Positions 31,759 through 36,083 of a stretch of DNA of 36,083 nt are shown here, piece after piece (position 1 is the first letter of the stretch; each line of letters starts with the position of its first letter). A program made the translations under genes and the position numbers. Source of the DNA: an uncultured Dehalococcoidia bacterium (GTDB taxonomy: Bacteria > Chloroflexota > Dehalococcoidia > Lucifugimonadales > Australimonadaceae); NCBI GenBank assembly GCA_964596665.1, contig CAZQVD010000002.1:1-36083 (forward strand). The letters run 5' to 3'. The notes under the pieces were generated by a model. It did not search any database, had not been told where the DNA came from, and saw only the letters and a program-made list of their open reading frames with translations.

Positions 31759-33054
31759 CTAACCTGTGCGATTGTCTTCAGCATCGCGAGCGTGCGCCGG
31801 TGGGCGGGCGACGAGCACCAAGACCATCGCGGTCATGCTCACGAGAACGAACACACTGAAGATCGAGCGGTAGCTGCTGGTGGCATCGTAGGCGAGAGCC
31901 GCGGCCAACGGTCCGGTGGCCTGCGCGATGTTCTGGGCGGCGCGCACCACCCCCTCGATCGAGCCCAGGTGCCGCCGTCCGAAGTAGTCGGCGAATATGA
32001 GCCGCTGGAGCGGCACCGAGCCTCCCTGTGCGATGCCGTAGACGATGCTCCAAACGATGGCGACCCAGGCTGGCCCCACGCTGAGCAGTATGGCGAGGCC
32101 GATGCCGTTCAGCGCAAAGTCCGCTGCCAGCACGTAGCGAACGTTGAAGTGGTCGCGCAGGAAACCCGCCAGCAGCGCACCGGCCGCTCCGAACCCGGAT
32201 TGCATCGAGAGCGCCACGACCGCTAACCCCGGCGACAGCCCGCTGTCGGTCAGATACGCCACGACGTGGAGTACCAAGCCTCCACGGCCGAACCACCAGA
32301 AGAAGCCCGCGGCGGAGATGAGGTAGAACGAAGGCTCGTGAAGGGCCTCCTTCAGGGTCAGCGAAACGTCCGCGACCATGGGCCTGGGCCTTGGTTCCTC
32401 CGGCGAAGCGGCCCTGATGTCGGGCGGCCGCCCGTCGGGCAGCAGACCCATATCCTCCGGCCGGCGCCGCATGAACAATGCCGTGGGCACCATGGACACG
32501 ATCAGGATGAGCATGCCCACGCCGAACGCCGCCGGGCGCCAGCTCGAGCTGCTGATGAGCGCCTGCACGAACAGCGGTATGATCGCCGCGCCGATGGGGA
32601 AGCCCAGATTGCTCAGCGAGAGGGCACGGCCGCGCCTGGCGATGAACCAGTTGGGGATGACGACGGCGGTCGCGACGGCTAGGACGCCGGTGTTCATACT
32701 TCGGGCGATCATCTGCAGCGCGTAGAAGTGCCAGAGGTTCTCCATGACGGACATCAAGGCGAAAGCGGTGCCGAGGACTCCGTAGGCGGCGACCAAGGCC
32801 CACCGCGATCCGAACCGATCGACGATGGGTCCGGTGAGTATCGCGGCCCCGCCTCCGGCGATGCCTCCGATGGTCAGCGGGAGCGTGAACGTGGCGCGAG
32901 TCCACCCGAACTCCTCAGTGATTGGCTTGAGGAAAATGCCGAGCACGGGCAGGGCCTCGGTACTGGCGCTGAATCCGCCCAAGGCGACGACCAGCACCAA
33001 CACCCAGCCGTAGAACACGCGGGGTTGGTGGGGTGGCGTTTCTGGTGGCGTCAA
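31759..33054 (-). CDS. MFS transporter
   Basis: VFYGWVLV, GPIVDRFGSR, WFIARRG, DYFGRRHLG. Start placed at TTG 33054, downstream of an extended -10 TGcTATCAT (33095-33087). Confidence 0.9.
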   Translation of the reverse strand: MTPPETPPHQPRVFYGWVLVLVVALGGFSASTEALPVLGIFLKPITEEFGWTRATFTLPLTIGGIAGGGAAILTGPIVDRFGSRWALVAAYGVLGTAFALMSVMENLWHFYALQMIARSMNTGVLAVATAVVIPNWFIARRGRALSLSNLGFPIGAAIIPLFVQALISSSSWRPAAFGVGMLILIVSMVPTALFMRRRPEDMGLLPDGRPPDIRAASPEEPRPRPMVADVSLTLKEALHEPSFYLISAAGFFWWFGRGGLVLHVVAYLTDSGLSPGLAVVALSMQSGFGAAGALLAGFLRDHFNVRYVLAADFALNGIGLAILLSVGPAWVAIVWSIVYGIAQGGSVPLQRLIFADYFGRRHLGSIEGVVRAAQNIAQATGPLAAALAYDATSSYRSIFSVFVLVSMTAMVLVLVARPPAHARDAEDNRTG

Positions 33055-33115
33055 AAAAGGGATCCGTTGTCGGGGTGGCCGCGCCGATGATAGCAGCAGA
33101 GGTGGCAGCGCGGCG

Positions 33116-33144
33116 TTGACCGGCTTGGATCCCAGCCGTATGCT
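33116..33144 (+). promoter_or_regulatory. Sigma70-type promoter of the pantothenate operon
   Basis: TTGACC (33116-33121), 17 nt spacer, TATGCT (33139-33144). Confidence 0.8.
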
Positions 33145-33150
33145 GCCGCC

Positions 33151-33297
33151 GCCGCCTATCTCGCTTCCAGCAGAAGGCGAGCACAGCCCGAAAAACTGAG
33201 GTTGGCCCGAAGCCGCTGGGATCGTTCGGCCGAGACGGCGCGGGGCTGGTGTTGGAATGGCATTCTGCCACGACGCCCGCCTGCGCGGGCGTTTTCT
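33151..33297 (+). ncRNA. Candidate cis-regulatory leader RNA (riboswitch/attenuator) of the pan operon
   Basis: About 170-nt UTR with several helices and mutually exclusive terminator/antiterminator pairing, folded by eye (see findings). Confidence 0.6.
33272..33297 (+). terminator. Intrinsic terminator inside the pan operon leader
   Basis: ACGCCCGC-CTGC-GCGGGCGT followed by TTTCT, about 25 nt before the first ATG (33323). Confidence 0.7.
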
Positions 33298-33322
33298 GGT
33301 CTCTTGCCCCTGGCAGGATCCA

Positions 33323-34309
33323 ATGAAAGATACACTGACCGACGTCATAGGCCTGGAAGTGGGTCACCAAAGCGACCTCGCAGCGGGCACGGGTTGCACC
33401 GTCGTGCTTGCGCGCGAGGGTGCGGTGGGCGGAGTGGACGTACGCGGCGCCGCCCCGGGGACCCGTGAGACGGACCTGCTGCGGGCCGAGAACTCGGTCG
33501 AGAAGATCCACGCGGTGGTGCTCAGCGGTGGCAGCGCCTACGGTCTGGATGCGGCATCGGGCGTGATGCGGTTCCTCGAGGAGCAGGGTGTGGGGCATCG
33601 CGTCGGTGATTTCGTCGTGCCCATCGTCCCTGGAGCGATCATCTTCGATCTGGGCACCGGTGCCAACGTGCGGCCGAGTGGCGGTGACGGCTACACCGCC
33701 GCCACCGCCGCGTCGAGTGATCCTCCCGAGCAGGGCACCGTGGGTGCAGGTGTGGGTGCCACCGTCGGCCAGGTGCTGGGCCGAGGCGCCGCGATGAAGG
33801 GTGGCGTCGGTTGTGCCAGCATGGACCTGGGCGGTGGTGTGGTGCTCGCAGCCATCGTCGTGGTGAACGCCATCGGCGGCGTGCACGATCCTGACTCCGG
33901 CGAGCTGCTGTGCGGGCCGCGTGGCGAGGACGGCCGGTTGCATGACAGCATTGCGGTTTACGCCGACCCTGATTTTGGAAAGCGCGCAAGCGCGGCGCGC
34001 ACGCAGGCGCTCGGGAACACGACGATCGGCGTGATCGCGACCACCGCCATGCTCACCAAGTCTCAGGCGAACCGGCTTGCAACCATGACGCACGACGGAC
34101 TGGCGCTGGCGATCCGGCCGACGCATACGCCACACGATGGGGACACGATGTTCGCGCTGTCCACCGGCTGCGTGGATGCTCCTGATGAATGGACCCGCCT
34201 CTGCGCCCTGGCGCCCACGGTCACCGCGCGGGCCGTCGTCAACGCGGTGCGGCACGCGACGAGCCTGCACGGCTTTCCGTCCATGTCGGAGCTCGCTGCC
34301 GATGGCTGA
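33323..34309 (+). CDS. P1/S58 family peptidase (DmpA/NylC-like Ntn hydrolase)
   Basis: LTDV.GLEVGH, TGCTVV, DVRGAAPGTRETDLL, LSGGSAYGL, VPIVP.A.IFDL, GNTTIG autoproteolysis site, HDGLA..I.P.HT..DGDT.F. Confidence 0.92.
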   Translation: MKDTLTDVIGLEVGHQSDLAAGTGCTVVLAREGAVGGVDVRGAAPGTRETDLLRAENSVEKIHAVVLSGGSAYGLDAASGVMRFLEEQGVGHRVGDFVVPIVPGAIIFDLGTGANVRPSGGDGYTAATAASSDPPEQGTVGAGVGATVGQVLGRGAAMKGGVGCASMDLGGGVVLAAIVVVNAIGGVHDPDSGELLCGPRGEDGRLHDSIAVYADPDFGKRASAARTQALGNTTIGVIATTAMLTKSQANRLATMTHDGLALAIRPTHTPHDGDTMFALSTGCVDAPDEWTRLCALAPTVTARAVVNAVRHATSLHGFPSMSELAADG

Positions 34310-35168
34310 GCTTCCCGCGATCGGCTTCATCGGTGCGGGCCGCGTGGCGCGTGTGTTAGCGCCGGCCTTCGCGGGCGCCGGGTATCGCGTCGTGGGGGCC
34401 GCGAGCAGGTCCTCCGCATCGGCCGAAGCGCTGGCCGCGACGGTGCCCGGTTGCGCGGCGACCGACGGCCAGGGTGTGTTGGCGGCAGCGGAGCTGGTGT
34501 TCATCACGACGAACGACGCGGCCATCGCCGACGCCGTCCGGGACGTGGCGTGGGCGCCGGGCAAGGCCGCCGTCCACTGTAGCGGCGCCTCGACGCTCGA
34601 TCCCTTGGCCCGTGCGAAGAAAGCGGGTGCGGCCGTGGGGTCGTGGCATCCGTTCCAAACGTTCGGCGCCGCGGGCACCACGACGGATCTCGAGGGCATC
34701 ACGGTGGGCATCGATGCGGAGGCTCCGCTGGACGGCACGCTGGGCGAGATCGCGCGCAGGCTCGGTGCGACGCCGATCGCCGTCCCAGAAGCGGCGCGCG
34801 CGCTGTACCACGCAGCATCGGTCATGACCTGCGGCTATCTGACGACGCTGCTGTATCAGGCGCAAGCGCTCTGGGAGCGCGCCGGGCTGCCCCCTGAAGC
34901 GGCGGGGCCGGCCATCGGCAAGATCGCCCAGTCGACCCTGGGCAACGTGATCCGGGCCGGGGCGCACGCTGCGCTTACGGGCCCGACGTCGCGAGGCGAC
35001 GAGGTGACGGTCCGCCGCCACCTGGGGGCGATCTCGGATGCCGCTCCCGGTCTGCTGCCGCTGTATCGCGCACTCACGGAACGCTCGGTAGCGCTCGCGA
35101 GAGAAGCGGGCCGCGATCCAGGGAATGTCGACTGGGAATCGTTGCTTGCTGGCAAGAAGGAGGGCTAA
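34302..35168 (+). CDS. Rossmann-like/DUF2520 oxidoreductase (PanG-like putative ketopantoate reductase)
   Basis: IGFIGAGRVA, VHCSGA, SWHPFQTF, LYHAA, ALTGP.SRGD..TV..HL; lies directly upstream of panB; start ATG 34302 overlaps the peptidase end. Confidence 0.88.
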   Translation: MAELPAIGFIGAGRVARVLAPAFAGAGYRVVGAASRSSASAEALAATVPGCAATDGQGVLAAAELVFITTNDAAIADAVRDVAWAPGKAAVHCSGASTLDPLARAKKAGAAVGSWHPFQTFGAAGTTTDLEGITVGIDAEAPLDGTLGEIARRLGATPIAVPEAARALYHAASVMTCGYLTTLLYQAQALWERAGLPPEAAGPAIGKIAQSTLGNVIRAGAHAALTGPTSRGDEVTVRRHLGAISDAAPGLLPLYRALTERSVALAREAGRDPGNVDWESLLAGKKEG

Positions 35169-35170
35169 TC

Positions 35171-36016
35171 ATGCCGATCCGCACGACCAAGCTGATGGAG
35201 ATGAAGCAGGCGGGCGAGCGCATCGCGTGTGTTACCGCCTACGACTTCCCCACGGCCAGGCTCGCCACCGCGGCCGGCCTGCCACTAATCCTTGTCGGCG
35301 ACAGCCTGGGCAACGTGGTGCTCGGATACGACAGCACGTTGCCGGTGACCATGGACGACATGGTGCACCACACGCGGGCGGTGGTCCGCGGCGCGCCGGA
35401 TGCGCTGGTGGTGGCGGACATGCCGTTCATGAGCTACCAGATCAACGCGGACGAGGCAATGCGCAATGCCGGGCGGCTCATGCAAGAGGGTGGGGCGAGC
35501 GCGGTCAAGCTTGAGGGCGGCCAGCACATCGCCGAGACGGTGACGCGCCTCACGGATGCGGGCATACCAGTGATGGGCCATCTGGGACTCACGCCTCAGT
35601 CGGTGAACCAGCTCGGCGGTTACCGTGTGCAGGGCCGCACGCTGGCCGAGGCTCAGCGCATGCTCGACGACGCGGAGGCGCTCGAGCGGGGGGGTGCGTT
35701 CTCCATCGTGCTTGAGGCGGTCCCTGCGCCATTGGCGGCCGTCGTCACCAAGCGTCTGCGCGTGCCGACCATCGGCATCGGTGCGGGCGCGGAGTGCGAT
35801 GGTCAGATCCAGGTGCTCCACGACATCCTCGGCCTCGGTACGCGCCAGCCCAAGCATGGGAAGCGGTACGTCGACCTGAACGCGGTGATCGGCGAGGCGC
35901 TGCAGCGGTATGCCGCCCAGGTCCGCGAGGGTACGTTCCCGGCAGAGGAGCATGCGACGGACATCGACGATGCGGTCCTGCTGGAGCTGTTGGGCGCCGT
36001 CGACTCGGAGCGCTGA
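35171..36016 (+). CDS. panB: 3-methyl-2-oxobutanoate hydroxymethyltransferase
   Basis: TAYD, ILVGDSLG, VADMPFMSY, AVKLEGG, GHLGLTPQS, TIGIGAG..CDGQ; AAGGAGG RBS. Confidence 0.98.
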   Translation: MPIRTTKLMEMKQAGERIACVTAYDFPTARLATAAGLPLILVGDSLGNVVLGYDSTLPVTMDDMVHHTRAVVRGAPDALVVADMPFMSYQINADEAMRNAGRLMQEGGASAVKLEGGQHIAETVTRLTDAGIPVMGHLGLTPQSVNQLGGYRVQGRTLAEAQRMLDDAEALERGGAFSIVLEAVPAPLAAVVTKRLRVPTIGIGAGAECDGQIQVLHDILGLGTRQPKHGKRYVDLNAVIGEALQRYAAQVREGTFPAEEHATDIDDAVLLELLGAVDSER

Positions 36017-36083
36017 TGCTCCGAGTCGAAACGGTCGCGGCGCTGCGCGAAGCGGTCGGCGCAGCCGCGCGCCCGCTGGGCCT
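36016..36083 (+). CDS. panC: Pantoate--beta-alanine ligase, N-terminus (partial, runs off window end)
   Basis: TGATG overlap with panB; MLRVETVAALREAVGAAARPLG resembles the PanC N-terminus preceding the VPTMG motif. Call rests mainly on synteny. Confidence 0.7.
   Translation, partial: MLRVETVAALREAVGAAARPLG

Follow-up and report, generated by a model that had tools for sequence, protein, structure and literature searches.

The pantothenate operon and its leader

The window considered here is the whole stretch of DNA that was analyzed, 36,083 nucleotides from an uncultured Dehalococcoidia bacterium. Within it, the feature of interest is flanked on one side by an MFS transporter gene that runs leftward (31759 to about 33021) and on the other by an operon that runs rightward, and it is framed by the following elements.

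33116-33144, forward strand: sigma-70-type promoter, with the -35 element TTGACC at 33116-33121, a 17-nt spacer and the -10 element TATGCT at 33139-33144
33272-33297, forward strand: intrinsic terminator, with the stem GACGCCCGC / GCGGGCGUU, the loop CUGC and the U-tract UUUUCU
33323-34309, forward strand: S58 peptidase (DmpA-like), the first regulated gene, 328 aa (Pfam PF03576, E = 4.9e-46)
34302-35168, forward strand: DUF2520/Rossmann-like oxidoreductase (Pfam PF10728 and PF10727)
35171-36016, forward strand: panB, ketopantoate hydroxymethyltransferase (Pfam PF02548, E = 6.7e-115)

The DUF2520 protein probably acts here as a PanG-type ketopantoate reductase; oxidoreductases of this kind are tied to Francisella PanG in a genome paper (PMC4572677). 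An open frame that starts at ATG 36016 overlaps the panB stop codon by one base and leaves the contig after 22 codons (36016-36083, MLRVETVAALREAV...). This short fragment is probably the start of panC. With NCBIfam, neither the S58 and DUF2520 proteins nor the ECF S-components described below could be named, the single match being a weak one to the folT family (24.9 bits, with a cut-off of 60).

A search for canonical aspartate decarboxylase (PF02261) found it in no more than 5 of the 57 family genomes, and not in the window's own assembly, which is 87.8% complete. The S58 peptidase may be tied to beta-alanine supply, which is put forward as an idea and not as a result. On the other side of the leader, a gene of the IMPDH/GMP-reductase family (PF00478; 30416-31633 in the window) also lies 5′ of the pan leader in many relatives, while the MFS transporter stands between the two only in some of them.

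A promoter consensus scan returned one site, TTGACC-17-TATGCT at 33116-33144, where 50 shuffled sequences gave 0.0 sites on average. From its position, transcription is predicted to start at about 33150-33151, which leaves a leader of about 172 nt between a start near 33151 and the ATG at 33323. An in-frame upstream ATG at 33257, which would lengthen the S58 gene, was rejected because homologs align from ATG 33323. The terminator was found in two scans: a consensus scan placed it at 33278-33291 with a U-run, and a separate scan gave a 9-bp stem from 33272, with the stem reaching 33293. Thus, the promoter, the leader of about 170 nt and the terminator at 33272-33297 that an original prediction, made from the sequence of the window, had placed at this locus were all recovered. 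No conserved leader peptide was seen among the listed open frames. Just past the terminator, at 33302-33318, a 7-bp hairpin of the minimum free energy (MFE) fold (UCUUGCC/GGCAGGA) buries the Shine-Dalgarno sequence AGGA of the S58 gene (33315-33318).

Homologous leaders

When 61 related genomes were searched at the DNA level, three others proved to have the leader itself in addition to the genes, in each case upstream of an S58-DUF2520 pair. A covariance model built from these four leaders (R1; the window and the three genomes) matched once in each of 19 family genomes out of 57, with that of the window among the 19. A second model, R2, which was built from the 19 family leaders, has matches in 40 of 151 sampled genomes of the order, three of which carry two. 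In addition, a scan for an exact pattern of the second hairpin of the leader (H2, below), with one genome per species, found 120 stretches, 80 of which were taken further. Among these 80 listed stretches (of the 120 found), 45 are full-length R2 matches, and all 45 are labelled Chloroflexota, as Dehalococcoidia, Anaerolineae, SAR202, Thermoflexia, Ardenticatenales or just Chloroflexota. Among the 35 listed stretches without an R2 match are all listed records from other phyla and from archaea. By these labels, the window's organism belongs to the Chloroflexota.

A covarying fold of two hairpins with bulged adenines

The fold that is supported by covariation consists of two tandem hairpins, H1 (33151-33182) and H2 (33212-33239), and a short helix, P2, around H2. 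Each hairpin follows the same order: 3 bp, a bulged A, 5 bp, a second bulged A and an apical stem. Along the window, its parts are as follows.

33151-33182, forward strand: H1 (pan hairpin 1), seen in the MFE fold, with compensatory changes; homologous copies align here with RF01749 hairpin 1
33183-33204, forward strand: linker, which in the MFE fold forms a local hairpin at 33184-33204, a helix that differs among homologs
33205-33208, forward strand: 5′ strand of P2, GCCC, pairing with 33243-33246
33212-33239, forward strand: H2 (pan hairpin 2), seen in the MFE fold, with covariation; homologous copies align here with RF01749 hairpin 2
33243-33246, forward strand: 3′ strand of P2, GGGC, in the window also the first part of an alternative (antiterminator) helix

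In the description that follows, pairs are named by the last two digits of their positions. The base of H1 has the pairs G51-C82 and C52-G81, after which A33180 is bulged on the 3′ strand; five pairs (C53-U57 with A75-G79) form its middle, A33158 is bulged on the 5′ strand, and an apical stem of variable sequence starts with U59-A74. Compensatory changes are found in 11/11 pairs of this hairpin, with 94.1% of cells paired among the 81 distinct sequences. H2 has four pairs at its base (G12-C39 to G15-C36), then the bulged A33235, a middle section in which C16-G34, U17-A33, G19-C31 and G20-C30 surround a G18/G32 mismatch, the bulged A33221, and a tip with U22-G29, C23-G28 and the loop GUUC. Compensatory changes occur in 8 of its 12 pairs, and the G33218/G33232 mismatch is kept in 72/81 sequences. 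Conservation of the H2 sequence is strong in the family set, whose members were collected with a covariance model and without any pattern; in the 45 of the 92 sequences that were chosen by the exact H2 pattern, its invariance exists by construction. All four adenines (A33158, A33180, A33221 and A33235) are unpaired in the MFE fold.

As for P2, compensatory changes are seen in 3/3 pairs, and 85.2% of cells are paired in the 19 family sequences and 80.9% in the 81 distinct ones; for instance, homologs have UGCCC/GGGCA, UGCCU/AGGCA or CGUCC/GGACG at this place. This helix is not evident in the Anaerolineae-type copies. In such copies (L129, L078, L066, L098, L076, L062 and L074), an extra hairpin, CACCG-CUUUCC-CGGUG, abuts the base of H2 and occupies the place that P2 has in the window's family. 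The linker between the two main hairpins holds the block AAAAACUGA, the counterpart of an ACAAC(U/C)GA block in close relatives.

Over the whole fold, both-sided changes were found in 20 of 27 pairs of the 19 family sequences, and 90.5% of cells were paired, against 33-48% when partners were slid by 1-3 columns; none of 500 shuffles of the same sequences reached the observed pairing and covariation values. Among all 92 matches (81 distinct), 23/27 pairs covary and 90.8% of cells are paired, figures that, like those of the family set, come from alignments fitted to the covariance model beforehand. The segment 33150-33322 does not fold with significant stability (z = -1.35, with 16/200 shuffles folding as well) and, consequently, stability cannot carry the claim that the element is real. 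Judged by its conservation and covariation, the leader element is real. With a promoter on its 5′ side and a terminator on its 3′ side, it is, on the same grounds, a conserved and structured cis-regulatory RNA that precedes a pantothenate operon, as had been proposed for it at the outset.

The helices that the original prediction had drawn for the aptamer have fared differently. It had proposed a hairpin at 33160-67/33173-81, a closing stem at 33182-90/33241-51 and an inner stem at 33202-11/33225-33. An aptamer made of them would define a riboswitch class of its own, with no relation to any known motif. The window sequence permits all three helices with standard base pairs. Nevertheless, in the 19 homologous leaders, the cells of the hairpin are paired in 51.8% of cases, those of the closing stem (scored on its five pairs inside the alignment) in 64.1% and those of the inner stem in 48.6%, and this last stem is also incompatible with the covarying H2. 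Taken together, the three helices are paired in 54.3% of cells, compared with 52.3% for shuffled sequences and 31-46% for controls with slid partners. Thus, they are features of the window sequence alone and not of the family.

Relation to the pan motif

The pan motif is an orphan RNA (Rfam RF01749) described by Weinberg et al. 2010 (Genome Biol 11:R31, PMC2864571). Its curated covariance model has 92 positions and a gathering score of 36.2 bits, and B. subtilis, which has a copy of the motif, served as a control in the search. In the window, the model gave no match at the gathering threshold, nor, at E <= 10, any match on 32950-33450 (501 bases), and it found none over the window's whole assembly. 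When the same 501 bases were scanned with Rfam at E <= 10, only chance matches appeared, the best of which was CRISPR-DR28 (26.5 bits), on the terminator hairpin. The absence of any Rfam family at threshold on the window is what would be expected of a new class. Its homologs, by contrast, link the leader to RF01749. Within the family, the model has matches below the gathering score at sites found by R1 or R2: over all 92 positions in G017 (32.0 bits) and G018 (21.8 bits), and partially in G002 (17.9 bits). In the order, where the scan covered 20 of 28 new loci, four of the 20 have a match at the motif site: L049 with 36.4 bits, L033 with 32.1, L040 with 29.4 and L043 with 28.8. The score of L049 is above the gathering score of 36.2, and at the same site R2, which was built only from the window's family, gives 45.1 bits. 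There is, in effect, a continuous series of intermediates between the window's leader and RF01749 members within the same order.

The alignments also show which parts correspond. Hairpin 1 of the pan motif, uGGgcgGU-A-UC...GA-ACcgc-A-CCa, is H1, and hairpin 2, CuGCCUgG-A-UCc...gGA-CcGGG-A-CaG, is H2, with the linker between them. As in the pan motif, the leader has tandem hairpins with 3 bp, an A on the 3′ strand, 5 bp, an A on the 5′ strand and a short apical stem. Its bulged adenines (A33158 and A33180 in H1, A33221 and A33235 in H2) are flanked by covarying pairs and have the spacing of the Rfam consensus; H1 and H2 lie 29 nt apart, and R2 spans both in 92/92 matches. The location is likewise that of the pan motif, in the 5′ leader of pantothenate genes: S58-DUF2520-panB follow in the window, and all 19 family loci precede S58 or panB. 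The window copy does not reach the gathering score of RF01749, which is an operational cut-off and not a structural feature. Since every described feature of the pan motif is found and homology to accepted members runs through intermediates such as L049, the leader is a divergent and GC-rich member of the pan motif and not a new class.

Consequently, the pan motif, which the original prediction had named as a candidate, turned out to be the right family, with homologs that align to RF01749 end to end, while the novelty that it had implied was lost. Its proposed comparison with Rfam came out in two ways, negative at threshold on the window itself and positive for homologs at the motif site. With these links, and with its helices pairing in homologs about as shuffles do, a new and unrelated class of riboswitch built on those helices is extremely improbable.

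Several traits set the window's leader apart from the motif as described. The linker in the consensus of the pan model is AU-rich, whereas that of the window is GC-rich and partly structured. The structure line of RF01749 is without a helix such as P2, which surrounds hairpin 2 in the window's family. In addition, the first regulated gene is an S58 peptidase, unlike in the pan motif as described. The Rfam model is too AU-biased to detect the GC-rich leader of the window. As this curated model misses GC-rich copies of the Dehalococcoidia type, the pan family is larger than its annotation suggests.

Genes behind the motif

In the 19 family loci, the next gene is that of the S58 peptidase in 18 and panB in one, and DUF2520 follows S58 in all 16 loci that are long enough to show it. 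Among the 45 named Chloroflexota loci obtained with the pattern scan, a pathway gene stands directly next in 33 (S58 in 22, DUF2520 in 10 and panB in 1). The remaining 12 are more diverse. Two of them have coaX, which encodes type III pantothenate kinase, confirmed by Pfam (L078 and L076); in L076, coaX is followed by coaBC and then by an S58 gene. Genes for ECF S-components come after the motif in three named loci, tandem ECF-type ABC ATPases in another three and a PHP-domain protein in one (all by Pfam). In L062 and L066, the next genes are ECF-like by their look, with no Pfam scan, and L124 runs off its locus. The loci located in this wider set are these.

L078 6965-7732 (reverse strand) and L076 1933-4022 (forward strand): coaX/coaBC loci, from the set of Anaerolineae, Ardenticatenales and Thermoflexia records, assigned by Pfam
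L064 4195-4869, L103 5823-6443 and L098 5870-6460: ECF loci behind the motif, with S-components of unassigned specificity or tandem ATPases
L129 3517-5307, L059 5731-7491 and L074 1049-2515: further ECF loci of these kinds behind the motif

These copies keep both bulged-A hairpins, with an H1 that is fully covaried (CACGG/CCGUG in place of CGCCU/AGGCG). Thus, as judged from gene order, the pan regulon in Chloroflexota appears to reach beyond pantothenate synthesis to probable uptake and CoA synthesis, while in its main text the 2010 description (PMC2864571) places the motif only before panB, panC and aspartate decarboxylase. The presence of coaX/coaBC and ECF genes in the regulon narrows the likely signal to CoA status and not pantothenate alone.

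Transcription start and expression platforms

A promoter-like sequence (TTGNN-N16-19-TAnnnT) ends 3-10 nt before the first base of the motif in 19/19 family loci and in 74/81 distinct loci, compared with 0/81 control stretches. In 70 of the 81 distinct loci, the distance from the end of the promoter to motif base 1 is 6-7 nt. Promoter spacing thus suggests that the RNA begins at the first base of H1, that is, at the predicted transcription start.

Downstream, a terminator within 150 nt of the motif was seen by eye in 14 of the 19 family loci, 20-35 nt after the motif, and by script in 13. Over the 81 distinct loci, 38 have a terminator behind the motif, and none was found in control stretches inside genes. 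Other family loci are built differently. In L020, L025 and L026, the start codon is only 11-19 nt past the motif and, in L020 and L026, the 3′ strand of P2 overlaps the purines of the Shine-Dalgarno sequence; to L018 and L024 no platform type was assigned. Two types of platform occur in the family: a terminator and, in L020 and L026, an overlap between the 3′ strand of P2 and the Shine-Dalgarno region. In the window's clade, then, the RNA would be structured from its transcription start and has an additional covarying helix, P2, whose 3′ strand may double as the start of an antiterminator or as part of a ribosome site.

Alternative pairing and its energetics

In the window, two further elements lie between H2 and the end of the terminator.

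33258-33270, forward strand: spacer hairpin P4, UGGCA-UUC-UGCCA, seen in the MFE fold
33240-33286, forward strand: alternative helix (antiterminator), which extends P4 and uses the 3′ strand of P2 and the 5′ strand of the terminator

Relatives have a hairpin of other sequence at the place of P4, for instance GGCCA/UGGCC or UCUUC/GAAGA. When 33151-33297 was folded, the conformer with the alternative helix was the unconstrained MFE (-67.6 kcal/mol), and the conformer with the terminator followed at -66.4 kcal/mol, a gap of 1.2. On these models, the window's leader looks bistable, which fits a switch. In the other 13 leaders of the terminator type, the MFE contains the aptamer as well as the terminator, with a margin of 4-18 kcal/mol. 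Thus, the alternative helix that had been predicted is indeed present in the unconstrained MFE of the window, but it is not conserved as such, the MFE of homologs being the terminator conformer.

Folds of the 14 leaders from which the 3′ strand of the terminator was withheld gave mixed partners for its 5′ strand, which paired with the 3′ strand of P2 in 5/14, with the 3′ strand of H2 in 3/14 and elsewhere in 6/14. The idea of a conserved antiterminator was dropped on account of these mixed partners. As a logic, antitermination is plausible on such energy models.

Mechanism and polarity

A core at the 5′ end of the RNA, followed by a terminator or a ribosome site and by a regulon of synthesis, probable uptake and CoA conversion, points to a cis-acting sensor of the CoA pathway. 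Quite probably, the element is a GC-rich pan-motif leader that acts as a transcription attenuator and reports pantothenate/CoA status. In the proposed mechanism, the RNA would start at base 1 of H1, the two bulged-A hairpins would fold and P2 would clamp H2, so that H1, H2/P2, the spacer hairpin and the intrinsic terminator would follow each other before the S58 peptidase-DUF2520-panB(-panC) operon. An effector recognizing the bulged-A hairpins would keep H2 and P2 folded; with the 5′ strand of the terminator left free, the terminator would form, and the operon would be off when the product of the pathway is plentiful. Without the effector, the 3′ strand of P2 and the bases that follow it would pair with the 5′ strand of the terminator, which would allow read-through.

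A polarity in which binding of the effector turns expression OFF, through the terminator or through a masked ribosome site, is moderately probable. It is preferred because of the bistability of the window's leader, the overlap between P2 and the Shine-Dalgarno region, and general considerations. The energy models of homologs would also accommodate the reverse polarity. The hairpins could be mainly an ON device, or an element of processing or stability, with termination by default and an effector needed for read-through or for stabilization of the mRNA; such an effector might be, for instance, a protein that is present when CoA is scarce. In effect, aptamer plus terminator is the predicted MFE in 13/14 terminator-type leaders, so OFF looks like the default state, and P2 by default covers part of the Shine-Dalgarno region in L020 and L026. 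Nevertheless, energy models ignore co-transcriptional kinetics, and in 8/14 leaders the 5′ strand of the terminator can first pair with the 3′ part of the aptamer. In addition, end-product repression is the usual logic of biosynthetic operons. On balance, an ON device or a processing element is unlikely, and an effector that promotes termination is the preferred reading.

Candidate effectors

In PyrR or TRAP leaders, a protein that senses a metabolite binds the leader RNA and picks the terminator or the antiterminator. Attenuation of this type fits the view of those who described the pan motif in 2010, who, in their paper (PMC2864571), considered its simple dimeric arrangement suggestive of a site for a dimeric protein. 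Unlike PyrR or TRAP leaders, the operons regulated by pan RNAs encode no protein in common, and autoregulation by an operon product is for this reason unlikely. A trans-acting and probably dimeric protein is the effector with a likelihood just short of even, and it is favored because of that dimeric reading (PMC2864571) and the lack of any ligand report for a motif that has been public since 2010. Direct binding of a metabolite of the CoA pathway is possible and is held more tentatively, and an effector of some other kind is unlikely.

If a metabolite is bound directly, the leader would be a true riboswitch, in which CoA, 4′-phosphopantetheine, pantothenate, pantoate or a similar compound binds the hairpins and stabilizes H2/P2 and the terminator. 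This tentative possibility has several observations behind it. A covarying structured domain is joined to an expression platform, and one conserved RNA core is combined with differing platforms, as in riboswitches. No protein gene is common to all the regulated operons, the H2 sequence varies little in the model-found family set, and a regulon of pantothenate synthesis, probable uptake and coaX/coaBC suggests a signal at or below pantothenate. There is also a precedent for such simple designs: the guanidine-II (mini-ykkC) riboswitch consists of two small, similar tandem hairpins that at first sight seemed too simple for a riboswitch, and the RNA was once thought to be bound by a protein. This is an analogy only, as guanidine-II has conserved loops where the pan leader has bulged adenines, and no Rfam match to guanidine-II was found in the window.

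Other observations speak against direct binding. The aptamer helices are predicted to be stable on their own, and nothing in the energy models calls for an effector. The motif was published in 2010 and has obvious candidate ligands, and a search of the literature for its function, a ligand or a binding protein turned up neither a functional experiment nor a report of binding; for instance, in a paper on the CoA pathway of B. subtilis (PMC11487621), the words riboswitch and RNA motif are absent. Furthermore, according to reviews from 2022, no riboswitch for CoA has been validated (PMC10043782, PMC9971707), and the describers of the motif read its simple design as a site for a dimeric protein (PMC2864571). 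Direct sensing of CoA, pantothenate or a precursor is treated as a candidate function.

A more specific proposal sees in the pan-type leader the natural riboswitch for CoA or a late precursor, such as 4′-phosphopantetheine, that has been missing for so long. Since the hairpins precede synthesis genes, a probable ECF importer and coaX/coaBC, the common signal would most sensibly lie downstream of pantothenate; the proposal itself is rather doubtful. The choice between a metabolite and a protein as the partner of pan RNAs is worth settling, as no CoA-sensing riboswitch has been validated according to the 2022 reviews (PMC10043782, PMC9971707). If the CoA riboswitch did prove true, the GC-rich variants, with P2 and their clean terminators, would be good constructs for finding the ligand.

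Occurrence in environmental libraries

Marine metagenomes contain DNA of the window's organism. In RNA libraries, short contigs with 95-99% likeness lie over the leader in four runs from three studies; these contigs show neither ends nor strand and may contain DNA, and they were given no evidential weight. Two of them, possibly DNA, cross the terminator (33170-33433 and 33170-33393), and one (33121-33296) stops in the U-tract, yet starts 30 nt upstream of the predicted transcription start. Both of the crossing contigs, which come from two different studies, begin at 33170, inside the loop of H1, and run into the S58 gene. This shared start may be due to chance, to a site of processing or to a break in the assembly at a point where strains vary.
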